Assembly: GCA_017454745.1 (NCBI GenBank)
Contig: JAFTCL010000007.1
Coordinates: 9,034 to 73,033 of the forward strand
Direction of reading: 5' to 3'
DNA from: Kiritimatiellia bacterium
Lineage (GTDB): Bacteria > Verrucomicrobiota > Kiritimatiellia > RFP12 > UBA1067
Length of the DNA stretch: 64,000 nucleotides
Shown in pieces: positions 1,795 to 24,276 of the stretch (its first letter is position 1; each line of letters opens with the position of its first letter). The position numbers and the translations under genes are program-made. Under the pieces are notes generated by a model, which searched no databases, was not told the DNA's origin, and worked only from the letters and a program-made list of their open reading frames with translations.

Positions 1795-2125
1795 CTTTAT
1801 CCCTCTTTTTTGTTTGCCAAAAAACCTTTTCCCCTCTGAAAAACGGGAACACTTTATTTTAGCAAAATACATGCCAGTTTGTCCAGCTTTAGTGAAGGCA
1901 ATCAACCGGTCGTGGTACATCCGCGAATCTCGCGCCACAAGGGGAAGCGATTTACTCGCGCAGAGACGCGGAATTTAACCCACAATCCGCGGTACGCGAA
2001 TAAAAACATGAGAGCCAGTTGCAAAACCTGCTTTTATGTCTCACGCAAAGTCCGCTAAGTTCGCAAAGCAACCATAAAACCCGACTTCGCGTACTTTGCA
2101 AACTTGGCGTGATATGTTTGACTCA

Positions 2126-2167
2126 GTTAGGAGAGGTTGAAGCCCGACGGCAGGACGCGCGTCATGC
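2126..2167 (+). repeat. 42-bp exact direct repeat, copy 1 (gttaggagaggttgaagcccgacggcaggacgcgcgtcatgc)
   Basis: Identical 42-mer to 11761-11802. Copy 1 extends into an inverted repeat (cgacggcag at 2145-2153 pairing with ctgccgtcg at 2173-2181). It lies just 3' of the stop of the 2195-3985 gene. Confidence 0.9.
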
Positions 2168-2194
2168 ACGCTCTGCCGTCGACCGTTCGACCGG

Positions 2195-3985
2195 CTACTT
2201 CTGCACCTTTATGGAGTAGAATCCCGATTTGCCGCCCTTGACCGTAATGTTCGGCGTCCACTTTGCCCCATCGCCCACCTTACTGTCGCCATTCGCCATG
2301 TCTTGGAGAGTTGCCCCTTCGATGAGGATGTATGTAAGTCCCCGCCGTGTCGGGGGTGTCGTGATAGACGGATTTTCTGGCGTAAGTTCTATCACCGCGC
2401 CCTTTTCCGTATCCATCGCCTCCCTGACAAACGCTTCCTTTACCGTCGCCGCGGTAAGATTGATTGCGCCTGAAGCGTCGGCAGCGGGAATATTTAGATA
2501 CGGCGTGATGTCATATCCATGGGCGACGACCTTTACCGCCGCCCCGTTCGCGGTTACGCGCTCAACATCCGGGGCAACCTCCACGGTCACCTTCTCGTGC
2601 GCAATGCCGGCGGGGATTATGACTACCACATTCTTGTTGCCATAGCTTGGCCTTACGACGAAACCGTCATCTTTATTGCCCGCCAGCTCAAACACGGCAT
2701 CGTCTTCAACGTACGGCGCATCGGCGACTCCGGCGACTTGCCACTCCACATCATCCAGCCATACGCAATCCAAGCCATCGGCATCGCTGACATCCTTTAT
2801 ATAAGTCCATCGTAGCGTATGCCGTCCATCACCGGTTATGTCGCACGAAACCTTTCCCCACCCATGCATGCCGTCCTGCCACGCCATGCAGACGCCATCG
2901 ACCGAAAACTCCACCCTGTCCCACGGCATCCCCTCATCATCCGTTTCCTCGCACGAGGTCATCCACCAGAAAGACACCGCGCCGCTGCCGTCGACCGTGG
3001 TCTCCAGCCAACTCTCCTGTTCATCGGAGATTCTCCCACTCCTCAACGACTCCCCGCCGCCACGGCCGTTAGACACGTCCCGAGTCCAGCCGGCATCGCC
3101 GGCCGTTGTGAAAGCGAGATCCGGCGCGTTCACGCCGTCTCCCAACGCCCATTCACGGGTTAACGTCGTCTCCACGGTCTCGGACGGCTTGCAGTTTGTC
3201 TTGAATGCCCTCGCTCGGATCGTCACCGTTTCGCCCGCCGCGAGGTTGATATCGAACGGCCCGGCGTAAACTGGGCTGTCTTCCGTCGGCTCGTCCCCGA
3301 GGAGCGAATAGCGGATAACTGCATCCTCAGTATCGCACGAAAGCGTCACCTGCCGCGTCTGGTTGCCAGTGAAAGTCAGATCGCCCTCGACGGCGATCTC
3401 CGGCACCGCCACCACGCCGAACCAATATTGCCCCTGTGTAGTCAGCGCCAGCTCTCCGTCCAGAAACGCCCCCACTGTCACCGTCATCGCGCTTTTCACG
3501 GTAAACGCCTTGAAGACGGGACTATCCGATGTCGGAGTCGTCCCATCGGTAGTGTACCGCAGCTCCGCCCCCTCCACCGAGCAAGAGGCGGAGAGTTTCA
3601 CAGACTTCGCAAGAATGTTCTCGCCAGGCAACGAAAGAGTCAGCCCGCATGATACATAGGCTTTGTAAACTTCAGCCTGGGCCGCGCCGTTGATATAGGT
3701 AGTGTAGGTGAGTTCGTGGCGGCCAAGGCCAGAAAGCCCATGCGCGAATTCTCCGCTGCCGGTCACGCGTCTCACCTCGTTGCCGTTGTCCGCAATCACC
3801 ACCGTCGCATCTGCGTCGCCGCCGATCCATGACGCGTCCCACGGCAAAGCAACTGTGCACAGTACAGGCTCCACCCCCGTGCGCGAATCAACCTTGACCG
3901 GCGCGCTCTCGCACGAGCAAATGACCCGCCCAAGCGATGTCATAGCCATCGCAACTGCAAGAGCGGCTATTATCGTCTTTCGCAT
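2195..3985 (-). CDS. Secreted hypothetical protein with repeated chitobiase/beta-hexosaminidase C-terminal-like (Fn3/Ig-like) domains
   Basis: Signal peptide MRKTIIAALAVAMAMTSLG. Repeated modules such as LRYTTDGTTPTSDSPVFKAF and IRYSLLGDEPTEDSPVYAGPF. No catalytic motif recognised. Confidence 0.5.
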   Translation of the reverse strand: MRKTIIAALAVAMAMTSLGRVICSCESAPVKVDSRTGVEPVLCTVALPWDASWIGGDADATVVIADNGNEVRRVTGSGEFAHGLSGLGRHELTYTTYINGAAQAEVYKAYVSCGLTLSLPGENILAKSVKLSASCSVEGAELRYTTDGTTPTSDSPVFKAFTVKSAMTVTVGAFLDGELALTTQGQYWFGVVAVPEIAVEGDLTFTGNQTRQVTLSCDTEDAVIRYSLLGDEPTEDSPVYAGPFDINLAAGETVTIRARAFKTNCKPSETVETTLTREWALGDGVNAPDLAFTTAGDAGWTRDVSNGRGGGESLRSGRISDEQESWLETTVDGSGAVSFWWMTSCEETDDEGMPWDRVEFSVDGVCMAWQDGMHGWGKVSCDITGDGRHTLRWTYIKDVSDADGLDCVWLDDVEWQVAGVADAPYVEDDAVFELAGNKDDGFVVRPSYGNKNVVVIIPAGIAHEKVTVEVAPDVERVTANGAAVKVVAHGYDITPYLNIPAADASGAINLTAATVKEAFVREAMDTEKGAVIELTPENPSITTPPTRRGLTYILIEGATLQDMANGDSKVGDGAKWTPNITVKGGKSGFYSIKVQK

Positions 3986-3989
3986 AATG

Positions 3990-5291
3990 CTATTCCTCCT
4001 GTTGAAAGTGTTCCGGCGCGGCGGTTGCTTGCGCTACTGGCCGGCCGGGATTGTGCATGTTCGTCTCCGTTTCACGGAGCACTGGCGTACCGAAATGGAA
4101 CCCTGTCTGTTCTGACACGGTGCTGACAAGGCGGAAGCCGTCGTTGTTGTTCTCGTTCGACGGGTTATTGTTGTTCCGGTTGGACGAGTTGCAGTTGTCC
4201 GCATTGTTGTTCCAGCTGCCGCCGCGTTTCACCCGGTTCGACCCGGAGGAAGAACCTTCTTTCGACGCCAAATCCTTCAGAATCCCCTTGAAGCCAAACC
4301 AGCGCGACGCACCATCGCTCGACGCTACGCACTGTGCAAAACGCTTTTCATTCAGCATCCCATTTTCAAACTGCCGCACGCGTTGGGCATACGTTCGCCT
4401 TGTTCGTATGAATCGTACCCGCTTAAGCCGCCAGCAGTTCGGCCAAATGCGCAGTCCAAGAAACGGCACACCATCCGACACTGGAGCAACGACTGTCGCG
4501 CCATCCTTGACTTCAAGACCTCTTTCCTCTTCAAGCCACCGTTTCGCCTCGTCATGCAAATGCCACGCCATCGCCTTGGAATCCGCAAAGAACACAAAGT
4601 CATCCATGTAACGAACATAAGGTACTGACGAAGGCGCGGTAAAACCGCGCCTTGCAACTATCGCTCCCATCCCGCAAATCGCAAGATGGTCGAAAGCGTC
4701 AAGGTACGCATTCGCAAACCATTGACTAGTAAGGTTGCCTATCGGCAGCCCGCGCCCTGTCGACAACCCAGGCACGGGGTGCCGCACGATCAGCTCAATC
4801 AAGTTCTTCACGCTTGTCTCGCGGAATTTCGGCAACAACACACCCAGCAACCATTCATGGCCAATGCTGTCGAAATACTTGCGGATGTCCATCTTGCAAA
4901 AGTATTTGGCCTGGCCTGCATACCGCCGCACCAACGCGCATGCCGCATGTGCGCCATATCCTTTACGGCAGGCGAAACTGACGGGAACGAAACTGCGTTC
5001 GATCAACGGTGCAATCACGCCGCAAAGCGCATGATGCACGACCCTGTCGGCCACCGGGGCGCAACTGATCGTTCTTGGTTTGGGATCGAATATCCTGAAC
5101 TGACGATAATCCGACGGCCGATATCTGCCGTTTATCAATTTGTCGCGCAAACAAGCAAGATTAACATCAAGGCAGGCTTCAAATTCTTGTACTGCGACAG
5201 ACGGCGCATGGCCTCGTCTCACGCGTCGCCAAGCCTTGCGAAGATTCTCTTCAGAGACAATCTTCACCCAAATGCCGCCGTAAGATCTCAC
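3990..5291 (-). CDS. DGR-type reverse transcriptase (RT domain about 4260-5291; the uninterrupted ORF continues in frame through the template repeat)
   Basis: RT motifs PRTISCAPVADRVVHHAL, KMDIRKYFDSI and YVRYMDDFVFFA (YxDD box). The start overlaps the upstream HRDC gene by 4 nt. Residues about 346-391 of the ORF are the TR translated in the VR frame (GSSSGSNRVKRGGSWNNNADNCNSSNRNNNNPSNENNNDGFRLV). Confidence 0.85.
   Translation of the reverse strand: MRSYGGIWVKIVSEENLRKAWRRVRRGHAPSVAVQEFEACLDVNLACLRDKLINGRYRPSDYRQFRIFDPKPRTISCAPVADRVVHHALCGVIAPLIERSFVPVSFACRKGYGAHAACALVRRYAGQAKYFCKMDIRKYFDSIGHEWLLGVLLPKFRETSVKNLIELIVRHPVPGLSTGRGLPIGNLTSQWFANAYLDAFDHLAICGMGAIVARRGFTAPSSVPYVRYMDDFVFFADSKAMAWHLHDEAKRWLEEERGLEVKDGATVVAPVSDGVPFLGLRIWPNCWRLKRVRFIRTRRTYAQRVRQFENGMLNEKRFAQCVASSDGASRWFGFKGILKDLASKEGSSSGSNRVKRGGSWNNNADNCNSSNRNNNNPSNENNNDGFRLVSTVSEQTGFHFGTPVLRETETNMHNPGRPVAQATAAPEHFQQEE
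4113..4256 (-). repeat. DGR template repeat (TR), including the IMH*-like 3' end
   Basis: About 134 bp of near-identity to the 3' end of the target gene (5941-6074). Homology is weaker over the terminal about 10 nt (4113-4122 vs 5931-5940). All but one TR/VR difference fall at coding-strand adenines of the TR. The TR is rich in AAC/AAT codons (15 Asn). Confidence 0.85.
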
Positions 5292-5848
5292 GCGATCACC
5301 TCCCCATCGTTTGAAGCGGCTGGACTGCAGTTTTCCGGAGGCTGCGGCCTATCACCTTTGGAAAGCGGCGCATCCGCCGCTTTCATACCTGCGCCGCCCA
5401 TCAGCTCCAACACGCTCTTCCCATACTTAACGCAAAAACCTTCTCCTAAACCTTCAACCTCCTTTATGCCTGACAGCGACTTGGGCATAGCTTTCACTAG
5501 TTCCGCCAATTGAGTGTTTCTCGCTATCGCATACGCCGGCCGGCCTTCGGCTTTCGCCGTTTCGTTTCTCCATGTCTTCAACGCGCGGTAGCAAGTTTTT
5601 TGTGCATCCGTAAGACCATCCTCGGGATTCGGTGCTGTCGCATCTCGTGGACGGTACGAACCCGCGTTCTCGTATTCTGGAGAATCTCCAAGCGACAAAA
5701 CGAGCGACAAATGGGGAACATTGCCATGCACAAAGAAATGTTCAGAGACATTCAACACCTCACGCCCGAATGTGGCAATACGTAGTGCTTCTTCAGGGAA
5801 ACCCTGAAGCGCCTCGTTGTATCGCAATGTGACAACCCGTATCTGCAT
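5288..5848 (-). CDS. DGR accessory protein with C-terminal HRDC-like domain (used in place of Avd)
   Basis: C-terminal segment GRPAYAIARNTQLAELVKAMPKSLSGIKEVEGLGEGFCVKYGKSVLE resembles the HRDC fold. It lies between the target gene and the RT and overlaps the RT start. The N-terminal extent is uncertain. Confidence 0.6.
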   Translation of the reverse strand: MQIRVVTLRYNEALQGFPEEALRIATFGREVLNVSEHFFVHGNVPHLSLVLSLGDSPEYENAGSYRPRDATAPNPEDGLTDAQKTCYRALKTWRNETAKAEGRPAYAIARNTQLAELVKAMPKSLSGIKEVEGLGEGFCVKYGKSVLELMGGAGMKAADAPLSKGDRPQPPENCSPAASNDGEVIA

Positions 5849-5918
5849 GGTTTGTGCCTCGCTGGCTGGTCGGCCCGTGCGCTACCGCGCCGGTCCGCCC
5901 GCCCTTGCGCTCCGCGTA

Positions 5919-8900
5919 TTATTCATTATTTGACAGGGTTCTGACAAGGCGGAAGCCGTCGTTGTTGTACCCGTCCGACGGGTAGCCGCTGCTCCGGTTG
6001 GACGAGCCGCAGTTGTCCGCAATGCTGCGCCAGCTGCCGCCGCGTTCCACCCGGCCCGACCCGGAGGAAGAACCCTTTGGGTCTGTCACTCCGCTTGATA
6101 GACTGCCATACCAATCAAGGCACCATTCCCACACATTGCCACTCATGTCGTACAAGCCCCAAGCGTTAGGATTCTTTGTTCCAACGGGTTGCGTTCCACT
6201 GCTTGAATTACTACCATACCACGCATAGCCGCCGTCCATCGAATCCCCCCAGTAATATACTGTCGTTGCTCCCGCGCGGCAGGCAAATTCCCACTGAGCC
6301 TCGGTGGGAAGGTCGAAATCCAACCCCGTCCGGGCGCGCAGCTTGCCCATGAACGATGAAGAATCCACCGCTGATGATGACGGCCAATCCGAGCCTGCCG
6401 ATGAGCCTCGGATTGAATTGTAGCTAACTTTCTCCACGGGCCGAGTGTCTCCGGAGAAATAGGACGGATTCGATCCCGTCACCAACATATACTGTTTCTG
6501 CGTCACCTCGAACACGCCGCAATAGAACGGTTCCGTCAATGTCACGTCATACGATCCGCGCATCTTGAACGAACCCGGCCCGATGAGACGCAGCACCAGT
6601 TTTGTCGTCTTGTACTCGTCCGACCAACCGCCGGGCGGGATTTCCGCGAGATATGAGACCGGATACGACGATGCGCCGGATCCGGCCGAAAGGTCAATCA
6701 CGCAGTATTTTTCATAATGTTGATACCCAACCGAAAACACCACGGCATCCGAGTTGATTTCCAGTCCCTGCGCATTCAGATCCCAGACAACGTGATGCGA
6801 ACCTTCATCCGTTCCCGTGTCGCCGGAGAGCGCGGAAGCGGCAGCCGCGTATGTCGTGCCGTCCACGCGGTTCGACGCCGTTAACGAAAGGAAGGGCATC
6901 ACCCCTGACGGCAGTCCCGCTGTCACATCACCAACCACGGTGTAAGTGACATCAACCTTCCCGTTCCACGGATACCGCTGTTTAGCCGTGACGTTCCGAA
7001 TCATTACAGTATCCCACTTCGCGTACAGCGTCGCCACCGATGATGACACCGTGTTCGTGGCATACACACGCGTTGTCAGCGACGAATCGGAACACCACCC
7101 TGCGAACGTGAAGCCGCTCTTCACCGGCGTCGGCAGACTGCCGTACGTGCCGCCGACCGTGTACTGCTGCGAACTGCACGAGCTCCCGCCGTTAGAGCTG
7201 AACGAGACCGTAATGTATTCTATCCACCATGCATAAAGCGTTGTCCCACTTGTCTTGTCCCACATCCTTGCACTTGCGCCGGAACCCGTGTAGTACTGTG
7301 TTCCGTATCCATCCGTAGATGTGTAATAGCCCCCGAACGAGTAGCCAGTTCGAGTTGGCGGTGTTATGGACGGCATCGCGCTTCCGTATGTCGCCGTAAC
7401 GCTTGACGTGCCATCGCTTCCGCCATACCGGTCCAGCGCAACATTATAGGTGTTTGCCGTCCATTTCGCGTATAGCGTTGTCCCACATGTCTTGTCCCAC
7501 ATCCTTGCACTTGCGCCGGAACCCGTGTAGTACTGTGTTCCGTATCCATCCGTAGAAGTGTAATAGCCCCCGAACGAGTAGCCAGTTCGAGTTGGCGGTG
7601 TTATGGACGGCATCGCGCTTCCGCATACTGCATACACTGCCTCCGTGCCACCGCTTCCCGACTTCATATTTAACGTCACTTTTGGCGCCCAAGACACTTT
7701 ATCCAAGTAGGCAGACACCAAACCGCTCTGATACGATGAATCTGTGCTTTTACACTCCCATTTAATTTTATGAGTGCCCGCCGAAATCGAGAAAGTTCGC
7801 TGTTCAAAATCAGAAAACATACCGGTAGCATAATTCGGATCCAGAGGATTATCCCCGTCAACAGAAAATTCTAACGAGTCAAAATGTGATTTCCCCGATA
7901 TATACCACCAGAAAGAGAGCCTTCCCGGACCTGTAACTGTTGTCTCAATTTGTCCACACTTGCTAACGCTATACATAGAACAACAGGCAGCGTCCACACC
8001 ATCATAACTTTTAGCCGTTTGAGCGTACCACGGGAAATCCCCACTTGTCGAAAATTCAAGGAATTCATTGTCCAAAGCTTCGGAAAGTGCCAACTGTGGC
8101 ATCTGGGCTGCCTCTTGGGTAAATTTATGGGTTTGAACACTGTTTCCACATGTAAACGTGATTGTAACTTCACGTTCATAAGGTGTCGTATTTGCGGCAA
8201 CTTCATATGAGGCAGTAAAACTTCCTTTGAATGGCGTCACCGGCATTGTAGACCACGACCAAAACGAACCTCCCCAGCCAGACACAGTTTCCTCCTCTGT
8301 CCACGAGGAATCGCACGAGATCTTGATTGTTCCAGTTCCCCCTGAAGCCGGTATCGTTCTCGTTTGCGGCGACACGCTGATTCCTCCATTTCCGGACGAA
8401 GCGGTGATCGTCACAGACTTCGTTATCGACTTGCCACCGTATTCGGCTTTGATTGTCACACTCTGCAACGACGACACACTATTAGCCGTCAGTTTGCCAG
8501 ACGAATTAATGGAAGCATAAGAACTTCCAGAAGTTATCGACCACGAGGGCGAAACCGATTTCGTCGATCCATCGCTCATGGTAGCAGTACATGTGTATGC
8601 GGCGTTGCCGCCGGACGATACGCTGGATGCCCCGGAAATGGCGATGGAAGAAACGGTCAAAGAGGAGGAGGAACCCGCAGCCTGCTTGATGGTGAGGTAA
8701 TCGCCAAAAGTGTTCAGTTTGGCGCGCCACGACCTTTCCGCCCCGGTGTTTTCAAAACAATTCGCGGTGATTACTATCGGCTGGAATCCGTTCCCGCGGT
8801 CAAACAAATAGGCGGAATTGTATTCCGATTCCCCATAAAGCACGGCATTGATATCGTACAGCGCAATACCGTATTTATATTCGTATGCCGTTGTCCCGGC

Positions 8901-9458
8901 GTATGCGCCGGTATCTATCGGTCCCATGGTTTGCCACCCCGCTATCCACACGTGCAAAATCCATGACGCCACTTGATAGGAAAAAGTGCTTCCCCACGCC
9001 CCCGATGTCATTTCGTAAGGGGCGTGAAAAGTCAATGTGGCATTCGAGCCTTGAGCGTCAATTTCAAGCACATACTCCCGCGGGGCGACCGCGGTCTCCG
9101 CATGTGCGGCGATCGGCATCGCCGCGGCAATTACCATTGAAAACAAGGATGCAAAGGCGCATACCGAGTGGATGATGAGCTTTGCGCCCACACCGGCAAA
9201 TGCCTTTGCGCCACGACGCCAATCGCCGCGCACGGTTTTCCCCGATGGGTCTTCACCGCAATCAGCCATAGTTCCAGACGGTAAAAAAGCAGCCTCCTCC
9301 GCAATCGCGATATTACTGCGTCCTTCTGTCATGTGCTTTATGAATTGTCCATTCATTAGATTTCCCTTCCTTAACCAAATTCCAAGACCAGGCATGAGCA
9401 GATTTGCCAGCATGTCCGTGCCGCTATCCGCTTGCCGCAACTTCAGAAAAGCCTTCAA
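5919..9458 (-). CDS. DGR target protein: large secreted multi-domain protein with Big_2, tandem Listeria-Bacteroides (Flg_new) repeats and a C-terminal FGE-sulfatase/C-type-lectin-fold domain carrying the VR
   Basis: C-terminal ...FACRAGATTVYYWGDSMDGGYAWYGSNS...GNVWEWCLDWYGS...GSSSGSGRVERGGSWRSIADNCGSSNRSSGYPSDGYNNDGFRLV is a formylglycine-generating-enzyme-like lectin fold. A signal-peptide-like stretch (AKLIIHSVCAFASLFSMVIAAAMPIAAHA) sits about 65-95 aa into the ORF, so the true start may be internal (for example near 9269). Confidence 0.8.
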   Translation of the reverse strand: MKAFLKLRQADSGTDMLANLLMPGLGIWLRKGNLMNGQFIKHMTEGRSNIAIAEEAAFLPSGTMADCGEDPSGKTVRGDWRRGAKAFAGVGAKLIIHSVCAFASLFSMVIAAAMPIAAHAETAVAPREYVLEIDAQGSNATLTFHAPYEMTSGAWGSTFSYQVASWILHVWIAGWQTMGPIDTGAYAGTTAYEYKYGIALYDINAVLYGESEYNSAYLFDRGNGFQPIVITANCFENTGAERSWRAKLNTFGDYLTIKQAAGSSSSLTVSSIAISGASSVSSGGNAAYTCTATMSDGSTKSVSPSWSITSGSSYASINSSGKLTANSVSSLQSVTIKAEYGGKSITKSVTITASSGNGGISVSPQTRTIPASGGTGTIKISCDSSWTEEETVSGWGGSFWSWSTMPVTPFKGSFTASYEVAANTTPYEREVTITFTCGNSVQTHKFTQEAAQMPQLALSEALDNEFLEFSTSGDFPWYAQTAKSYDGVDAACCSMYSVSKCGQIETTVTGPGRLSFWWYISGKSHFDSLEFSVDGDNPLDPNYATGMFSDFEQRTFSISAGTHKIKWECKSTDSSYQSGLVSAYLDKVSWAPKVTLNMKSGSGGTEAVYAVCGSAMPSITPPTRTGYSFGGYYTSTDGYGTQYYTGSGASARMWDKTCGTTLYAKWTANTYNVALDRYGGSDGTSSVTATYGSAMPSITPPTRTGYSFGGYYTSTDGYGTQYYTGSGASARMWDKTSGTTLYAWWIEYITVSFSSNGGSSCSSQQYTVGGTYGSLPTPVKSGFTFAGWCSDSSLTTRVYATNTVSSSVATLYAKWDTVMIRNVTAKQRYPWNGKVDVTYTVVGDVTAGLPSGVMPFLSLTASNRVDGTTYAAAASALSGDTGTDEGSHHVVWDLNAQGLEINSDAVVFSVGYQHYEKYCVIDLSAGSGASSYPVSYLAEIPPGGWSDEYKTTKLVLRLIGPGSFKMRGSYDVTLTEPFYCGVFEVTQKQYMLVTGSNPSYFSGDTRPVEKVSYNSIRGSSAGSDWPSSSAVDSSSFMGKLRARTGLDFDLPTEAQWEFACRAGATTVYYWGDSMDGGYAWYGSNSSSGTQPVGTKNPNAWGLYDMSGNVWEWCLDWYGSLSSGVTDPKGSSSGSGRVERGGSWRSIADNCGSSNRSSGYPSDGYNNDGFRLVRTLSNNE
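5931..6074 (-). repeat. DGR variable repeat (VR) at the 3' end of the target gene, including the putative IMH end
   Basis: Pairs with TR 4113-4256. 11 of 15 TR Asn codons are altered in the VR (N to G/R/S/I/G/S/S/G/Y/D/Y), plus K to E and E to G, all by A-to-N changes. Confidence 0.85.
7244..7630. repeat. Intragenic tandem duplication (about 239-bp period, roughly 1.6 copies) encoding the Flg_new-type repeats of the DGR target
   Basis: Near-identical DNA at 7244-7390 and 7483-7630. These encode ...SAMPSITPPTRTGYSFGGYYTSTDGYGTQYYTGSGASARMWDKT.GTTLYA.W twice. Confidence 0.8.
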
Positions 9459-9916
9459 TCCAACTTAAACATCCGTTTCGACGGGTCGTCTGAAAGCTTC
9501 TCAATCAGCATATCCACCAATCTATCACCGGCTTCCGCATGAGCTACCGCCCCACTGTTGTTTCCTTTCACTTGACCTTTTGCGTCTATCAGACGATGGA
9601 GGACCGCCGACAGTCTTCTATCATAGGAATTCAGCAAAAATGACAATTCTCCCATCAGATTGCTTCTATATCTGTATGCCTCTATCAATTCCCAACATAC
9701 TCTGTAGTTTTTCCTGGCCGCACTATTGATACCCCATATAGTCATAAACGCCATGGCATAACACCCAAAGGTTATAAACAAACGAGTTGTTCCATCCGGC
9801 AGCTTAATGTCAAAATACCAGGCTTGTACAGCCGCTGCGACGCATATCAATATCAACAGCACATCCGTTGCAAGTTCAACAATCTTCCAAATCAACATGA
9901 TCGATGTACGCGGCAT
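9455..9916 (-). CDS. Hypothetical small membrane protein (two N-terminal TM helices)
   Basis: 153-aa ORF in markedly lower-GC DNA. Its stop overlaps the annotated start of the DGR target by 4 nt. No recognisable domain. Confidence 0.5.
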   Translation of the reverse strand: MPRTSIMLIWKIVELATDVLLILICVAAAVQAWYFDIKLPDGTTRLFITFGCYAMAFMTIWGINSAARKNYRVCWELIEAYRYRSNLMGELSFLLNSYDRRLSAVLHRLIDAKGQVKGNNSGAVAHAEAGDRLVDMLIEKLSDDPSKRMFKLD

Positions 9917-9935
9917 CTTTTATCCTCCATTCGGT

Positions 9936-11183
9936 TTAAACCCCGCCATAGCATTCTTTCCAGAATTTGCAAACACCGCATTGGCAATGGCGCGATTTGA
10001 AATCAAACGCCTTATCCTTAATGTCCTGAAACATTAATTCATGGGAACGCAGCTCTATACCGGGGTGGGGACCATAATCGACATTGTCCATAATCCACGC
10101 GTTTTCCAGAATCATTACCACTTCACGCGTACGGACGTAGTGAAGACCGTACTCAATGCTGTAGCGGCAGTAAAAAACAAGAAGCGAAGCCGCAATCAAC
10201 ACGGAGAAAGCCAATACCGTTCCGCTAGATTCAGGATTCGCCGGACATCGGCCCCTGTTTTCAAGTATCTTGATTTGGCATTTCGCCGATACTAACACTT
10301 CTCCGGAATTCTCGCGCACCGGACTTTCGCGATTGTCCATTACGCTGTGAATGACAGGCTGTCCCTGCCGACAATCGCAGTTTGCGTTTCCACATATATT
10401 GAAGGCGGCAATTACAGCCGCTACAAAAAATGACAACAATAAAACCCTGAAGATAAATGTCAAGACATACCAAAGCGAACACAACATTCGGATATGGCAT
10501 TCGTTACGCACCATGTCAAGGATCAGATTGGTGTGCCCGGAACTTCTTAAACGTTGCTTGATAATGTTTATGTACGTCTTGCTGCAAACCCCCTTCTGGT
10601 ATTCTTTCTTGAAGTGCATGCCGCCGCTTCCTTCGCACCAAGGCACATAATCGGCCAGTTTTTGCAAACCTCGGCAACACAAATACTTTCTCATTGACGG
10701 GTAAGGGTAATCGATGCTTGTTCCCGCTTTTCGCAATATCCAATGTTCACGGTCCAGCCAAAAACGCAAACGCCCGAACAGTCCGGACGGGATTGCGCAG
10801 TTTTGGGTGAAAGAAACCGCAAGTCTGCCAACCTCGTCGGGCGAAGAACCGTTTTTGGTCAACAACCATTGATGGTGGGAGGAAATCGTATCCGGAGTCT
10901 TGGGAGACCGCCTATAGGCTATGGCCCCGGCCACATAAGACAAAGCAAGGAAAATAAACATGCCTCCAGCAGTGCTGCAAGTCAACCGCAACACTTCTTT
11001 AATCAAATCTTTATTCGGCATCGCATAGTAGCAAAGGCCAAAAGCGATTAAGAACAAACCGGCAACCGCGATTATGCCCGGAATCAACGTTCCGAAGAAT
11101 TCGATATAAAAATTCTGGACGAGAGACAGAGTCCCCCATATATTGTCAAACAAACTGCTTCTAGAATCTCTAGATTTGGACAT
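9936..11183 (-). CDS. Hypothetical Cys-rich polytopic membrane protein
   Basis: 415-aa ORF in lower-GC DNA with multiple hydrophobic segments and many Cys (CCRG, CDCRQG, HCQCGVCKFWKECYGG). No recognisable family. Confidence 0.5.
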   Translation of the reverse strand: MSKSRDSRSSLFDNIWGTLSLVQNFYIEFFGTLIPGIIAVAGLFLIAFGLCYYAMPNKDLIKEVLRLTCSTAGGMFIFLALSYVAGAIAYRRSPKTPDTISSHHQWLLTKNGSSPDEVGRLAVSFTQNCAIPSGLFGRLRFWLDREHWILRKAGTSIDYPYPSMRKYLCCRGLQKLADYVPWCEGSGGMHFKKEYQKGVCSKTYINIIKQRLRSSGHTNLILDMVRNECHIRMLCSLWYVLTFIFRVLLLSFFVAAVIAAFNICGNANCDCRQGQPVIHSVMDNRESPVRENSGEVLVSAKCQIKILENRGRCPANPESSGTVLAFSVLIAASLLVFYCRYSIEYGLHYVRTREVVMILENAWIMDNVDYGPHPGIELRSHELMFQDIKDKAFDFKSRHCQCGVCKFWKECYGGV

Positions 11184-11460
11184 TCAATGTCTCCATCAAC
11201 AATTCAGAGTGTTTATTGAAATGTGCTGGATAGAGGAGACCCGCATCCCGGATTCGCCGACGCGACTTCCTCCGCGCCAAACCGTACGCGCCAATTTCCC
11301 GCATACGAATGTTTATCGAGTGCGTTTTTCGCCGTCATGGATCCGTCCCTTCCTTAATTTGCAGGTCATGGATAGCACATCCGCCTGTTCAACTGCCAGA
11401 AAATCCGATTACCGGAGGGAGGGGGAAATTGACACCTCCTCCGATGCATCACGGATAGGT

Positions 11461-11559
11461 GCCTAGGACGGACCTCTAAAAGATACATCGAAGGAGGCGA
11501 GACTGCACGTGACAAGGCAGTGCCTCTTTGATGCGTCTTTTAGAATAAGTTTCCTAGGC
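11461..11559. other. Long imperfect hairpin (about 25-bp stem, 23-nt loop) in a 600-bp intergenic region; possible structured RNA or regulatory element
   Basis: gcctaggacggacc-tctaaaagatacatcgaaggaggc-[gagactgcacgtgacaaggcagt]-gcctctttgatgcgtcttttaga-ataagtttcctaggc. The arms are reverse-complementary apart from a few mismatches or wobble pairs. A second hairpin ccggagggaggg...cctcctccg sits at 11411-11445. Confidence 0.35.
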
Positions 11560-11760
11560 TTTATCCGTGACGCGCCCTAACGCGGGTTCTAGCCCGCGCG
11601 GGAAATCTGTTTGTCACATTTCCCAAAACGGCCTTATCCGTCTAAGGAAAAGAACATATAAATGTTACCATATTTGCCATTTATTTGCAATATTGAAATA
11701 ACCGCCATCCGCGTTTTTGTGACGCGAATCAACCAAGGGGATTTGTTCGCGGCTGACGCC

Positions 11761-11802
11761 GTTAGGAGAGGTTGAAGCCCGACGGCAGGACGCGCGTCAT
11801 GC
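11761..11802 (+). repeat. 42-bp exact direct repeat, copy 2
   Basis: Identical to 2126-2167. It overlaps the stop codon (11797-11799) and last codons of the 11797-12204 gene. Confidence 0.9.
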
Positions 11803-12204
11803 GCGTTTAGAGGGATCCGGGCGGCGGGCGAGGAATCGGGCAATCATTTCAGCAAGCGCTAGGTATTGAAGACTGCCCAAGACTCCGAAGAACAGAATCG
11901 GGAAGAGAACCTCTCTCAACAAAAAGGAGCGTAACAGCATGATTGCCGGCAGTTGCAGGAGCGACGAGGGTAAATCCGCAATATCGAACCAGAGCCAGCC
12001 CAGCAATGCTTCACTGGGTCCGAGTTTAAGCATATCCGCCTCAATCGTCCAGGCGACAATCAGTACAGCGGCGAGATGGATGCCGCCAACTGCGATAGCC
12101 GTGCGGGAAAAACGGAACTTGTTACGAAGCAAAAGGCTTGCCGCAACAAACAATCCGGTCGCAATGATAGATGTTATAAGAACCAAAGCGGTACGCAGCG
12201 GCAT
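11797..12204 (-). CDS. Hypothetical membrane protein
   Basis: 135 aa with 3-4 predicted TM helices. No recognisable domain. Confidence 0.45.
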   Translation of the reverse strand: MPLRTALVLITSIIATGLFVAASLLLRNKFRFSRTAIAVGGIHLAAVLIVAWTIEADMLKLGPSEALLGWLWFDIADLPSSLLQLPAIMLLRSFLLREVLFPILFFGVLGSLQYLALAEMIARFLARRPDPSKRA

Positions 12205-12242
12205 GGCGGCAACCCATTAGGAACGCGGCCCAGACGGCGGAT

Positions 12243-14417
12243 TTAGTTTTTGACACTGGCGTCCGCCATGGCGCCGTTTACCTTCACCTTGACCTTCTTG
12301 GCGGCACCGTGCAACTGGTAGTCCGTGACTTTGCCGTCTTTCCAGGCGAAATCGACCGTAATGCCGCCGCGCGCCCGCAGGCCGGACACCTGACCGTTTT
12401 CCCAGCCCGGCATCACCACCGGCAAAATATTGACGAAACCCTCATGCGACTGCACCAGCGACTCGGCAACCGCCCCCACTATTCCCAGATTGCCGTCAAT
12501 CTGGAACGGCGGATGGGTGGTGAAAAGATTCGGCATGGTGTTGTATTGCAACAGCGATTCAACCATCCGACCGGTTTTTTCGCCGTTTCCAAGCCGCGCC
12601 CACATTGCGGCCCGCCACGGCCAAGTCCACGACCGGCGGGCATCGCCGGTTAAAGCGCGGCCTTCCAAAGCGACCGCCGCCGCCTTGGCAAATTCCGGGG
12701 TTTTGCTAAGGGTAATCTCATCGCCCGGATACACCGCAAAGAGATGCGAGGTGTGACGGTGGGTGTCGCCCTTGACATCCCGGTCGGTTTCCCACTCCTG
12801 CAACTGTCCCCACTTGCCGATTTTGTTGCCAAGCAGTCTGCCTTTAACGCGGCGCACTTCTTCGACAAACTTAGCCGAATCTTTCACCACCGGCTGGCAG
12901 GCCAAGATGTCGGCGAAAATCTGCGAGTATATCTGCTGGTCATGGGCAACGCCGTCCTCACGCGGCCCATGTTCCGGCGACCAGCCGTTCGGCACCACCA
13001 TCGTCCCGTCGGGACGCTCCTTGATGTGGGTGAGGCAAAACAGCGCCGCGCCCTTCAACAGCGGATAACCGGTTTGCTTCAGGAAATCCTCGTCCAGCGT
13101 AAAGGCGTAATGCTCGTAGGCGTGATGCGCGGTCCAAGCCGCGCCAGGCAGATTCCAACGCCAGCCCATGCCGCCGAAAATATTCGCGCTGGTACGGTAG
13201 GCGAACCCCTGGCTGTCCGGGAACGCCTTCCTCGTCTCCGTCTCCGCCAACGGCGCGAGCGCTTTCATCCAATCGAAAAGCGGCAGATGCATTTCCGGAA
13301 GGTTGGCCGTCTCCGCGCCCCAGTAATTCATCTGGATATTGATGTTGGTGTGGTAGTCGCAATGCCAGGCGGGATGGTTGGAGTTGTTCCAGATTCCCTG
13401 GAGGTTGGCGGGAAGCGACCCCGGCCAGCTGCTGCAAATCAACAGATAACGACCATACTGGAACAGCAGCCGCGCCAAATCCGGATCCCGCTGACCTTGA
13501 CGGCAACGGGCCACCCGTTCCGCCGTAGCTAATTTTTCCAAAGCCGGATCGGTGTTGTCCAGCCGGAGTTGCAAACGGCTGAAATAACGCGAATACGCGT
13601 TTTGGTGGTCGGCCAGCAAGCGGTCATACCCTTTGCTTTGCGCGGCGGACAGGCATGGCTGCAAATCGCCGCTCCATTCAGGGTTGACAAAATCCGGCTT
13701 GCCGCTGTCATAGTTGCTGTCCGCCGTGAAAAGCGCCAGCAAACCGGTACAACCTGAAAATTTGATGCCGCCGTCTTCGGCAACAGTGTCTCCGCTCAAC
13801 GCAACCAGCCGCAGTCTGGCGGCATATTTCAAACGGTTGGGGAACCCGCCGGAAAATTCCGCATCGGAATACCCGTTACCACGCTCGTATTTCGTGCGTT
13901 CCCCGTTCGCGCCGTTCAGCCGCAACTCGCCTGAAACCGCTTTGCCGAAATTCACGCGACAGACCAAAACCCGGTCCGGCGAAGAAACAAAGGCGAGGCA
14001 ATCGCCGTCCGCACCGCCCCGGCGGTATTTTACCGTTTCCACGGCGCGGGACAAATCCAGAACCCGGCGATACCCCTCGACCTGCCCGGTCTCGCCGTCA
14101 ACGCGGATGGAGAACTCGCCCAAGTTGCGGTACTCGCCCATCGTTTTGTAATTGCTGTCGGCCACCGAATCCGATGCGCTGCCGTTCAGATTGGCATCAC
14201 CGGTCCATAGCGAATCAAGGTTTACCTGCACATTAAGATTGGTAACGCCGCCGTTGCCCATCGCACCGATACGGCCGTTTCCCAACGGATAGCGCTCCGA
14301 GTCCCAACGGTTCGCCGGACGGTCGGAAAATATTTCCAGACCGGAACCGGCAAAAACCGAAAGCGCTGCAAACGAAAGACACAGCGATATGAAGCCACGT
14401 TTCATAATAATCCCCAT
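12243..14417 (-). CDS. Glycoside hydrolase family 95 (alpha-L-fucosidase-like), secreted
   Basis: Signal peptide. N-terminal RYPLGNGRIGAM...LWTGD and central WHCDYHTNINIQMNYW motifs are typical of GH95. Confidence 0.8.
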   Translation of the reverse strand: MGIIMKRGFISLCLSFAALSVFAGSGLEIFSDRPANRWDSERYPLGNGRIGAMGNGGVTNLNVQVNLDSLWTGDANLNGSASDSVADSNYKTMGEYRNLGEFSIRVDGETGQVEGYRRVLDLSRAVETVKYRRGGADGDCLAFVSSPDRVLVCRVNFGKAVSGELRLNGANGERTKYERGNGYSDAEFSGGFPNRLKYAARLRLVALSGDTVAEDGGIKFSGCTGLLALFTADSNYDSGKPDFVNPEWSGDLQPCLSAAQSKGYDRLLADHQNAYSRYFSRLQLRLDNTDPALEKLATAERVARCRQGQRDPDLARLLFQYGRYLLICSSWPGSLPANLQGIWNNSNHPAWHCDYHTNINIQMNYWGAETANLPEMHLPLFDWMKALAPLAETETRKAFPDSQGFAYRTSANIFGGMGWRWNLPGAAWTAHHAYEHYAFTLDEDFLKQTGYPLLKGAALFCLTHIKERPDGTMVVPNGWSPEHGPREDGVAHDQQIYSQIFADILACQPVVKDSAKFVEEVRRVKGRLLGNKIGKWGQLQEWETDRDVKGDTHRHTSHLFAVYPGDEITLSKTPEFAKAAAVALEGRALTGDARRSWTWPWRAAMWARLGNGEKTGRMVESLLQYNTMPNLFTTHPPFQIDGNLGIVGAVAESLVQSHEGFVNILPVVMPGWENGQVSGLRARGGITVDFAWKDGKVTDYQLHGAAKKVKVKVNGAMADASVKN

Positions 14418-19017: not shown

Positions 19018-22000
19018 TTAGTACAAAAGGATCAAGGTGCCGATATCGCGAACCGCATAAAGAATGCCGTCGCGCAAAACCAGTTGCGTCTCAACACCGT
19101 CAACCGCCGGAGTGTCCAGCAAGAAATCTTCCAGCGTCAACCCGGGGCATTGGGTAAGGTCGATAAGCGTCTTGCGACCATCGGCAAATGGCGGGACGTG
19201 CAGAACTATCCTATCGCCAAGTTTGTCCATAGCGCCGTTAACCGCCAGTGTTCCGGTCTCCGCAAAGGTTATCTCGCCAACGGTAACGTTTCCGTTGATA
19301 CCTGCGCCGCCCAGCAATGACAGCTTATAGGCGGCAAGCGCGGAACCATTCACTGCAAAGTCCGAACCGTCATCCATCGTGACCGTTTCAACCACAGCGG
19401 ATTCAGCGGCGGAGATGGTAGAACCGGCTGCCGTGACGTGTACTGATGTCATCGGCAAATCGTCTTGCATAACCTCGATACCGGTAACCCACTGCTCGGC
19501 AACCGCACCACCGGTGGCGGCGGAAATTCCCAAATACACCTCTTTGGTGCCGAAGTAATCCACCAGATCGACAACCTCCGGGCAATCGGCGGCGACCACG
19601 ACGCCGTTTTGGGTCGCGGTGGCGTTCAGCGAAGTCAGGTCGTAGCTCAACTCGATGGTGGTTGGCGTGCCCGAAACCAGATTGATGCCCGTGTTTTTCA
19701 TCTGGCCGTAATTGGCGACGAAATTACCGTTCTTCAGCCAGCGGAAATATTGGTCACCGTAAATGTTCACCGACCAACCGATCGACGAGGTAAACCCTCC
19801 GGAGTAACCGACCGCACCGCCGGTATTGCCGATGGTGTTGGTGGCGTTGTTGTGCAGGAAGAACGCCGCACCGTCCGCAGGAGTGCCGCTGGAGAAGGCC
19901 AGATAGGTGAATCGGGCGGTGAAGGGACGGGAAACGTCCAACTTCTTAGCCATTGTGGCGGCGGCGCGCAAGCTGCCGCTCTGGGTGGTAAGCCTTATCG
20001 CAGGAGCTCCATTGGTGGTGATTATCTTAGCCTGGTCGATCAAATACCAGTTGGAGGCGTCAATTATCCCGGCCAGATCCGCCATCGACGGATAACGCTT
20101 GACCTTGAAGGTCGAAGTGAAATCAGTGATGTTCTGATCCACGGAACTACCGCCGGTAGCGGCGGTGAAACCGACAAACGCAGTCGTACTGTTGAGTTGG
20201 TTGGTGATGTTTACGCTCTTGGTGTAGGTCTGGGTAGTTGACCCAACGGTGACCGTCTGGGTAAGCGTCCCGACGCCGTCGTAACTGATTGTCCACTTGG
20301 CATTACCACTTTGGAAGTTGAACCCGCTTATGCCTTTGCCATCAACTTTGCCAGCGTTGATGATAAATCCTACTTGGTCGGGGTTACTGTAAACATTGGC
20401 GTAAACACCTACCGACGGATTAAACACCGTCATGCCGAGCGAACCGCCGTTCCTGCCAATCTGCAACGGCGGCGAATTGTGCAGGATGAAAGAGAAACCG
20501 TCCGCCGGCGTGGATGTCATCGCCCCGGTTTTGTAAGTGAAACTAACACTCCACGGTTGGGAAATATCAACCCGCTCCGGCCAAAACGCCGTTGCGGCGC
20601 AATAGGTCTTATTGTCCGTCAAGTGCAGGGTCGAGCCGTCGGAGGAAATGTTGGCCGTGCAGTTGGAACCTTGTACGAACCAGTTGGCGAACCCGGTCAG
20701 AACATTTTCCCGGTAATCGCCGGCAGAGAGACCGAGCGTGCCGCCATTCAACAGCACATCCTGATGGGAGAAAACCGCAGGATCGGACAGATTCAACGTA
20801 CCGCCGGCATTAACCTGCGCGATCAGTTGCGACGCGTTGCCGGAAGTGACGGTGGATGTGACACCGTTGTCCACCACCACCTTTCCTGATCCGAAAAATC
20901 TGCCGGACAGATTGCCGGCCGTCACGAACTCGGCACCGGCGGCAACCGACAAAGCGCCGGCGGACATTGCGGAACCGGCACCTTGAACCAGACAGCCGGC
21001 ATTGACCCTGGTGGTGCCGGTATAGGTTTGCGGCGCGGTAAGAGTAACCGTGCCGCTACCGTCCTTGATCAACCCGCCCGCGCCGGACACAATGTCTCCG
21101 AAATCGTTATCACCGTTACTGTCCAGATAAACAGTGCCTCCAGCCGTATCAATACCGCCGGTAGATGCCCACGAGAAATTCCCGCCGTTGCCGATATACA
21201 TTCGGCTGGACGCATTTCTAAGGGTAACCCGGCCGTTATAGGTATTCTCAGAACCAGCAAAACGCAGGAAACCGCCATCGGTGAATTTTATTGCGCCGTT
21301 ACCGCTGAGGTCGCCCAGCACCGTCATGCAATAAGTACCCCACGGATGGAACTCTGCGCCGTTCGCGCCGACAAAAATGCCGCGGGTGGCGGCTAACGTG
21401 AAGTTGGCATTGCCGGAGCGTAAAGTGCCACCGTCGATGGTGATATTGTCTGGATCTTTCTCCGCCGGCACCGCGCCGAAACCGTCCTCCGTGGCAAACA
21501 CCGCGCCGCCAGACGCGATTACCGTGCCCTGCGAATAGCTATTCGCAGGGTTGGACAGATTAACCAGTCCGCTCTTTGACACTTTCACCTGCACCCCGGA
21601 ATCTTGGTCGGAAAGAAGCGGACGATATCCGGTGTTGGAAGATGAAACCCACGCAGTGGCCCCACCTCCGAGGGTTATCGTATTCTCAACATTCGGGAGA
21701 ATTGTCCCCGTTCCGGTAAGACTGGTCGGAGCGGAATCGATTAAAGTACCGATCGGGAACTTGCCCAGATCGACGTTGAAGTGGGCGCTGTTTGCGGTAA
21801 GAAGGATCTGGACCGGTCCATCAGCCTGAATGCGAGTGTTGAGAAAATCACGCCCTAAATCGGCATCGGGCTGGATGACCGTACCGGCGCTCATGGCAAT
21901 TGTACCGGTGAATCCGGCCGCGGTAGGCGAACCTAGCACCAGCTTGCCGCTTTCAACCGTTATCCCGCCGGTCATGCCGGAGTTCGCGCCAGATAAAATC

Positions 22001-24189: not shown

Positions 24190-24276
24190 AATTCCCTCAA
24201 CATACAACAAGCACCGATCCCAAAGCATCGGTCATTCACATTAACGCAGTATGACCTGTACCCACGACATAGACTC

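Follow-up and report, generated by a model that had tools for sequence, protein, structure and literature searches.

Direct repeats at or near the ends of a lineage-specific diversity-generating retroelement operon in a rumen Kiritimatiellia bacterium: possible att-like junctions of an island without integrase

The DNA analysed in this work, referred to as the window, comprises 64,000 nt of contig JAFTCL010000007.1 (assembly GCA_017454745.1, positions 9,034 to 73,033) of a rumen bacterium of the Kiritimatiellia. Towards one end of the window, two identical 42-bp direct repeats bracket a diversity-generating retroelement (DGR) together with the genes that accompany it. Comparison with close relatives revealed that this block is a lineage-specific insertion that they lack, and that the repeats are located at or near its ends. 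The explanation that we favour, to which we give about even chances, is that the repeats are attL/attR-like (attachment-site) junction duplications of an island of ~9.6 kb that has no integrase and lies at the 3' end of a gene encoding a 135-aa protein.

All genes of the region are on the minus strand. Upstream of the insertion lie GH95 (12243-14417 in the gene list) and the native gene encoding the 135-aa membrane protein (11797..12204). A gap of 613 nt (11184-11796), holding a structured non-coding leader of 577 nt (11184..11760), separates the latter from the first gene of the block. The block itself is one operon of six tightly spaced genes on a single strand behind this leader. These encode a 415-aa helical membrane protein of an uncharacterised family (9936..11183; GC content 46.9%); a 153-aa membrane protein that is the conserved partner of that family (9455..9916); the DGR target (5919..9356), with BACON / Flg_new repeats, a C-terminal FGE-sulfatase/C-type-lectin domain and the variable repeat (VR) at 5931-6074; a DGR accessory protein with an HRDC domain (5288..5848); the DGR reverse transcriptase (RT; 3990..5291; RVT_1), with the template repeat (TR, 4113-4256) inside a 3' extension of its open reading frame (ORF); and, as the last gene of the block, an Fn3-associated/CHB_HEX_C protein (Fn3/CHB; 2195..3985). 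Distal to the repeat that follows this gene there is a flank (1908..2125) lacking in the sister genome, then the native upstream region of a GldA/GldG-like ABC operon (1795..1907, 95% identical to the sister) and the gene of its ABC ATPase (1060-1794, with the gene start at 1794). The contents that a first-pass annotation of the sequence had assigned to the block, namely a secreted Fn3/CHB-like protein, a whole DGR, two membrane-protein genes and a structured intergenic region, were therefore correct.

The leader is predicted to be highly structured, with a minimum free energy (MFE) of -213.6 kcal/mol (z -5.2) and an imperfect hairpin of ~130 nt; neither an Rfam family nor a recognisable gene remnant was found in 11184-11760. 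A match to Intron_gpII at 11225-11316 was below threshold (15 bits, E = 3) and was set aside as probably due to chance. With regard to composition, the GC content of the block is 53.3%, compared with 57.3% in the right flank. The first-pass annotation had described the whole block as lower in GC; this holds for the right 4.4 kb (7401-11760, 48.8%), whereas 2195-7400 (56.9%) is host-like. The GC content at third codon positions is 0.49-0.54 for the 153- and 415-aa genes, 0.69 for Fn3/CHB and 0.68-0.80 for the flanking genes, the 135-aa gene (0.57) being an exception among the latter. The atypical composition over 7.4-11.8 kb was counted in favour of an island.

The window contains exactly two copies of the 42-mer (GTTAGGAGAGGTTGAAGCCCGACGGCAGGACGCGCGTCATGC), located at 2126-2167 and 11761-11802 in the same orientation and with no mismatch, which confirmed the observation that had drawn attention to this locus; a 42-mer match did not arise in any of 100 dinucleotide-preserving shuffles. 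Similarity between the copies reaches 52 nt, with 49 of the 52 positions identical between copy 1 (2119..2170) and copy 2 (11754..11805), neither of which is assigned a strand. Read on the coding (minus) strand, the repeat unit is GCATGACGCGCGTCCTGCCGTCGGGCTTCAACCTCTCCTAAC. The other long repeats in the whole 64 kb are the TR/VR pair of the DGR, an intragenic domain duplication and one weak pair of 31 nt.

Both copies had been placed at the extreme 3' end of genes. For copy 2 this was borne out, since it covers the last codon and the stop codon (11797-11799) of the 135-aa gene. Copy 1 is different: the stop codon of the Fn3/CHB gene is at 2195-2197 and the repeat starts 28 nt downstream of it, and therefore this copy is in the 3' flank, outside the gene. 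A third copy was not found in the window plus ~8 kb of additional contig (~72 kb in total), even when halves or sub-motifs of the 42-mer were searched for and 2-3 mismatches were allowed, and an exact scan with a 25-mer from the repeat gave no match in genome, metagenome and viral contig collections. Together with a sister gene end that lacks the element, these results argue against a dispersed family of repeats associated with 3' untranslated regions or terminators, the alternative that the first-pass annotation had offered.

The repeat is predicted to fold differently at its two positions. At copy 1, the minus-strand RNA would form a long hairpin (2145..2181) composed of an outer 9-bp stem, CGACGGCAG/CTGCCGTCG (2145-2153 / 2173-2181), which had been noticed before, and an inner 6-bp stem closed by the loop AUGAC, with an MFE of -42.8 kcal/mol in a context of 111 nt and z -3.6. 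In this structure the first 23 nt of the unit pair with block-specific DNA located just upstream, and the 5' arm (2168-2181) is outside the repeat. Copy 2 can form just the inner hairpin of 6 bp (11790..11806, minus strand; ACGCGC-AUGAC-GCGCGU), with the UGA stop codon in the loop, and the surrounding fold is unremarkable (z -1.3). Two substitutions in the 5' arm that distinguish copy 1 from copy 2, outside the perfect 42-mer, maintain the pairing (G.U to A-U and U.G to C-G). Inside the 42-mer there is a 14-bp near-palindrome, AKGACGCGCGTCMT, while 19 of the 42 identical nt form no structure; no U-tract follows the hairpin at either copy. Thus, at copy 1 a near-palindromic core stands between 9-bp inverted repeats of which the outer arm is island-specific, and this arrangement, as far as the sequence can tell, is an att-like architecture. 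Scans for tRNA and tmRNA genes and against Rfam, at both gathering and permissive thresholds, revealed neither a tRNA-type att site nor a known RNA family; 'miRNA' matches were treated as chance or generic hairpins.

The absence of the block from relatives was established through the native genes on either side of it. Homologues of the 135-aa protein are rare, as only three were present among 5.8 billion proteins, and on the contigs of all three a 134-aa gene is followed 165 nt on by an ABC ATPase gene. Cluster look-up then extended the set of empty sites to the sister genome GCA_002309765.1 (L134) and another 14 contigs, whose sources include cattle rumen. Of the 15 contigs on record, ten sequences (L134 and nine others) were read; all show the spacing of 165 nt between the 134-aa and ABC ATPase genes, and their intergenic sequence is near-identical, with differences at 1 or 2 positions. 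L134 and the window have in common the gene order E1 dehydrogenase, 364-aa, GYF, GH95, 134-aa, ABC ATPase, permease, GldG-like, DUF4340, MoxR, as well as a nucleotide identity of 94-95% in both flanks over at least 10 kb, and 40 bp in L134 stand in place of window positions 1908-11789 (9,882 bp). The synteny comparison proposed by the first-pass annotation hence gave a clear result: the block is absent from the sister and from further contigs that show the same gene order on both sides. Among 80 GTDB species representatives retrieved with the ABC ATPase as query, none had a GH95/135-aa neighbourhood; the closest relatives of this protein reached 83% amino-acid identity there, in agreement with the annotation of the source MAG as a Kiritimatiellae bacterium. 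A match of the Fn3/CHB protein in L040 was limited to the domain level and was rejected as evidence of synteny.

The right breakpoint with respect to the sister is inside copy 2. The alignment ends at 11790, and collinearity stops at ...AAAC, the start of the 52-nt repeat. As a consequence, the C-terminus of the 135-aa protein differs between the two alleles; in the window it reads into the repeat and ends with RRPDPSKRA, the TGA being provided by copy 2, and in the sister it ends with RPSRCPAN. The end of collinearity and a stop codon within copy 2 reproduce the pattern of elements that enter the 3' end of a gene and supply it with a replacement end. A second lineage-specific indel with respect to L134, at window positions 19029-24242, consists of one gene encoding a protein of 1,736 aa (19018-24228, minus strand; lectin L-type/PATR domains) that sits between the Wzy_C and E1-dehydrogenase genes and has a host-like GC content of 56.4%. 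No flanking direct repeat of at least 11 nt was detected for this indel, implying that the repeats of the DGR block are not a generic by-product of indels in this region.

On the left side, collinearity with the sister is lost at 1907, that is, 218 nt beyond copy 1. The DNA in between (1908-2125) is partly native. It holds, at 1955-1972, the 18-mer TCCGCGTCTCTGCGCGAG, which is absent from the sister L134 and present without changes (18/18) in L030, where it is located 253 nt upstream of the ABC ATPase gene and ~90 nt upstream of a sigma-54-like GGCAT-N5-TTGCT. The spacing in the window to its own element is equal; this element, TGGCAT-N5-TTGCT at ~1860-1876, is conserved in several Kiritimatiellia relatives. 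In L009 a 17/19 match with the exact 14-mer core was identified downstream of a 138-aa homologue, and among 141 loci the core was present only in L030, L009 and copies of this genome's own locus. This distribution, with the sequence in the relatives lying between the 135-aa homologue and the ABC operon, suggests that the 218 nt beyond copy 1 are probably native DNA that was lost or replaced in the lineage of the sister. As the 18-mer is native, the left edge of the island must lie within 1973-2203, an interval that holds copy 1. For 1973-2125 no homology to the relatives could be demonstrated; this stretch includes an imperfect hairpin of 70 nt (2042-2111) directly distal to copy 1, which has no counterpart in the sister genome. 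The palindromic 18-mer, located ~80 nt upstream of the sigma-54-like element, is a candidate site for an enhancer-binding protein. We also considered whether the DNA that follows each copy belongs to a larger, degenerate duplication that includes a promoter. A lenient Smith-Waterman comparison gave a score of 35 that was not reached in any of 300 shuffles, yet it was matched elsewhere in the window, and under strict scoring the GGTTGATT box scored 12, below the background maximum of 15; this extended homology was consequently rejected.

The block does not encode an integrase, a serine or tyrosine recombinase or a transposase that could be recognised with Pfam, PHROGs, PADLOC and NCBIfam in its six genes, or with Pfam in the ORFs of the leader. 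Phage and conjugation genes are likewise missing from it, as the PHROGs matches concern only the RT and the target, and a blastn search with the region gave no match to phages and plasmids. The 415-aa protein was evaluated as a hidden recombinase and proved negative in every test (HMM libraries, structural model and fold search): its AlphaFold model is confidently that of an all-helical membrane protein, with a pLDDT of 77, and has no fold match in the PDB. The repeats do not have the properties of a transposon target-site duplication, considering that they measure 42-52 bp (against 2-15 bp), that no inverted repeats were reported and that a transposase is missing. Neither do they resemble a XerCD/dif site, since the cumulative GC skew is monotonic over the locus and a direct reading of the repeat showed no dif-like arms.

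With one copy on the breakpoint and the other within the interval of the second edge, the locus is most simply explained if a circular element integrated through one crossover at a shared sequence; such an element, lacking a recombinase of its own, would be at best a remnant similar to a cis-mobilizable element (CIME). According to this explanation, which in our estimation is about as likely as not, a circular form of the island would have carried the ~50-bp sequence within a longer hairpin/palindrome beside the Fn3/CHB gene, and one crossover between this sequence and its match in the chromosome would have left one copy at each end. The site of integration would be the very 3' end of the 135-aa membrane-protein gene, whose stop codon the repeat now supplies, on the upstream side of a sigma-54-type ABC-transporter operon. 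The crossover could have been catalysed by a site-specific recombinase acting in trans or lost since then, or by RecA on short homology. In this scheme we infer both how recombination took place and that the recipient site already contained the core.

Several observations weigh against such an integration. Besides the absence of recombinase genes and the left breakpoint that is 218 nt away from copy 1, the empty site of the sister does not contain a recognisable 42-mer, but only TGMCGCGCGT..TGCC (14/16), a match that was equalled by 26 of 300 shuffles. The filled state was present on every contig of this lineage (from 5-6 samples), none of which revealed an empty site, a circular junction or a second site of insertion, and the ~72 kb covered by the search for a third copy represents ~2% of the host genome. 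Furthermore, the DNA adjoining the block is unusually divergent. Synonymous divergence (dS) from the sister is 0.36 and 0.33 in the two genes adjacent to the island (regions 11797-12400 and 1060-1794), compared with 0.11-0.21 further out, and identity to the sister falls from ~95% to 74-91% over ~12,400-11,800, with 74% at 12212-12305. This raised divergence of the flanks implies that the block may derive from a more distantly related strain and have arrived through homologous replacement; if block and flanks derive from a divergent strain, the original integration may lie in a donor that has not been seen. Of the att-like scars of an integrated element proposed by the first-pass annotation, the inserted block and the repeats at or near its ends are supported, whereas a recombinase, a 42-mer in the sister and a left breakpoint at the repeat are missing or ambiguous.

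One alternative is that the copies are a functional cis element, either a hairpin that stabilises or terminates 3' ends or a palindromic site bound by a protein, which was duplicated or recruited and is now shared by the island operon and the neighbouring unit; their place at the block edges would then mark the boundaries of transcription units and would not be a scar of insertion. The position of both copies agrees with this idea, as they are in gaps between minus-strand units (between the 135-aa gene and the leader, and between Fn3/CHB and the ABC operon); so do the inner hairpin present at both, whose pairing is kept by the two substitutions in the 5' arm, the strong hairpin at copy 1 (z -3.6) and the 14-bp near-palindrome in the core. 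In addition, related DGR blocks have lineage-specific intergenic repeats of their own, such as the hairpins of L142 and the 9-nt arrays of L106 that are described below. However, an element of this type would have to exist in just two copies in ~72 kb and in none in the collections, and the corresponding gene end of the sister lineage lacks it. The lack of a U-tract after either hairpin, the restriction of the 9-bp outer stem to copy 1 and the weak fold of copy 2 (z -1.3) are also at odds with such a function, and a perfect identity over 42 nt, including 19 unstructured nt, exceeds functional need. We therefore regard a purely functional role of the repeats as unlikely.

According to another alternative, the whole 9.9-kb segment (1908-11789), with both copies already in it, was acquired from a Kiritimatiellae strain that is more divergent, either through recombination between homologous sequences of the conserved flanks or as terminally redundant DNA (~50 bp) that was inserted illegitimately; in either case the repeats would be silent on the route of entry. 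In support of this possibility, 40 bp were replaced instead of a clean insertion taking place, the identity to the sister drops towards the right junction, dS is raised in both adjacent genes, and the 42-mer is missing from the sister site. In addition, contigs of other samples end at 12,384, although the two contigs concerned may come from one sample and were not used as evidence of a structural variant. On the other hand, the origin of the repeats would still need an event of integration or duplication in the donor; on the ABC side the divergent DNA does not adjoin the junction, given that 95% identity resumes right at 1907; and the flanking genes are small, which makes the dS estimates noisy. 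On these grounds an import of the whole segment seems doubtful to us, with a modest chance of being correct.

Regarding the contig ends just mentioned, the SPIRE scaffold L002 (1-110) has the DNA upstream of window position 12384 (the 3' end of GH95) swapped for the start of a divergently oriented gene with a lipoprotein signal, and L003 starts at the same base as this boundary; this might reflect a structural variant or a scaffold chimera. Neither these ends nor those at 2203 (L012 and L013) were taken as structural variants, since each pair may be one sample assembled twice.

A third alternative is that the six-gene DGR operon is a discrete mobile cassette of an undescribed kind, for which the ~50-bp repeats, with AKGACGCGCGTCMT as their core inside a long hairpin, would serve as cis sites for movement by a dedicated recombinase in trans or by way of an RNA intermediate. 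We consider this very unlikely. In the RNA route, the more speculative of the two, the repeats in a read-through transcript would act like retroviral R regions for the cassette's own RT. If the block were such a mobile cassette, the lineage-specific repeats of L142 and L106 would be variations on one theme.

The arrangement of the locus is identical on an 86.7-kb ENA contig, and both junctions are crossed, with hundreds of bases on each side, by k141 MEGAHIT and SPIRE contigs from several samples (L002-L004, L011-L013 and L133; other ruminant samples). An origin of the repeat in faulty assembly, or in a fortuitous match that fused unrelated contigs, as could be thought from the Logan contigs L001 and L006, the only ones (k=31) that end inside it, is consequently excluded for practical purposes by the independent junction-crossing contigs and by the shuffles, none of which gave a match.

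The cargo of the block includes a genuine DGR, as demonstrated by its RVT_1, HRDC and FGE-sulfatase domains and by adenine-specific differences between TR and VR; the two repeats are 86% identical, and 17 of the 20 differences fall on adenines of the TR. The RT ORF extends across the whole TR, and RT residues 340-391 match the profile of VR-type FGE-sulfatase/lectin domains; many homologues in the RT clade carry the precomputed domain combination PF00078+PF03781. A TR located inside the RT ORF appears, from these domain assignments, to be a trait of this RT clade. Within the DGR target there is a 176-nt tandem duplication (7214-7389 / 7451-7626; 93% identical, spacing 237) that corresponds to repeated Listeria-Bacteroides (Flg_new) domains. 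Downstream of their RT, the two most closely related cassettes (L099 and L100) have genes similar to the N-terminal region of Fn3/CHB (56-64% over ~110 aa).

Relatives of this DGR were inspected for repeats, and no flanking equivalent of the 42-mer was found in L101, L142 and L106. In L142, from a human-gut metagenome (RT 67% identical), the DGR block is between housekeeping genes and is accompanied by 10 copies of a hairpin element, GGGAGGGNCGCG, at 5244-6634, 11287-11346, 17400 and 19411-19577. This element exists only in and around the block, in plus orientation upstream and minus orientation downstream, with one pair just after the TR. In the related DGR of L106, every gap between the genes of the cassette contains an array of a periodic 9-nt motif, TCGATTCNC (1202-1280, 3154-3214, 4499-4586 and 5390-5459). 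In L101 a 35-nt direct repeat (337-371 / 12648-12682; 27/35) surrounds hisF, guaA and the related DGR, and is followed by a DUF3987 gene, a type associated with mobile elements; this pair was rejected as a flanking repeat of the island type because it is promoter-like and also encloses housekeeping genes.

Regarding the remaining two genes of the operon, 34 homologues of the 415-aa protein were found, with the invariant motifs DYPYP..R..L..RGL, NIIK, RNE..IR and HYVRTRE. In each of the five neighbourhoods examined (L094-L098) a small protein follows, and the C-terminal motif IENLxDDPSKxMF of the 153-aa protein is common to three of the four partner proteins that were aligned. This conservation indicates that the 415- and 153-aa genes constitute a two-gene module, which is as yet uncharacterised. 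It heads operons whose variable cargo resembles that of conflict systems, either dynamin/HSP70/GrpE/FGE-sulfatase or DUF87/radical-SAM, and its genes showed no homology to those that precede the DGR of L101. Related cassettes contain the DGR part (target, HRDC protein, RT and large secreted protein) but not this module, which implies that the island is composite and fits its two compositional halves.

Prophages and integrative and conjugative elements (ICEs) are the usual mobile context of DGRs. As in those cases, the present DGR is complete, with RT, accessory gene, TR/VR and a target with a C-type-lectin fold, and resides on horizontally acquired DNA. In contrast, it is not accompanied by phage, conjugation or integrase genes, it belongs to a single six-gene operon with a structured leader, its accessory protein is of the HRDC type, and the RT ORF reads through the TR. 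With repetitive extragenic palindromic sequences and bacterial interspersed mosaic elements (REP/BIME), the repeats share a GC-rich hairpin between convergent or tandem transcription units; they differ from them in having two copies in ~72 kb that flank one lineage-specific insertion, in the 42 identical nt that include 19 unstructured ones, and in being missing at the orthologous site of the sister. An island without integrase between direct repeats is also found in integrative mobile elements that exploit XerCD at dif (IMEX); however, neither two 11-bp arms around a 6-bp centre nor a switch in GC skew exists at this locus.

The closest likeness is with CIMEs, an established category of islands that keep attL/attR direct repeats after the loss of their integration genes (Guedon et al. 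2017, PMC5704250). Like them, the block has specific cargo between identical direct repeats of tens of bp, without integrase or transfer genes; it has entered a protein-coding gene at its 3' end, which the repeat now provides, is missing in close relatives and is in part atypical in composition. Unlike them, it has no known related element with an integrase that would mobilise it, and the attB core was not seen in the empty site available. Moreover, the host belongs to the Kiritimatiellae and not to the Firmicutes, and the cargo is a DGR operon.

In summary, the repeats fit the established pattern of att-like scars, and the mechanistic novelty of the locus would be low unless mobility without a recombinase were demonstrated. 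Its importance resides in being a cleanly delimited DGR on a small, cargo-only island in a rumen member of the Kiritimatiellae, a poorly studied gut phylum, for which filled and empty alleles exist at a background identity of 94-95%. The locus shows that a bacterium can acquire DGR cassettes in the form of compact operons devoid of phage and conjugation genes, and the pair of alleles constitutes a natural comparison for the role that the DGR and the 415/153-aa membrane module play in the host.

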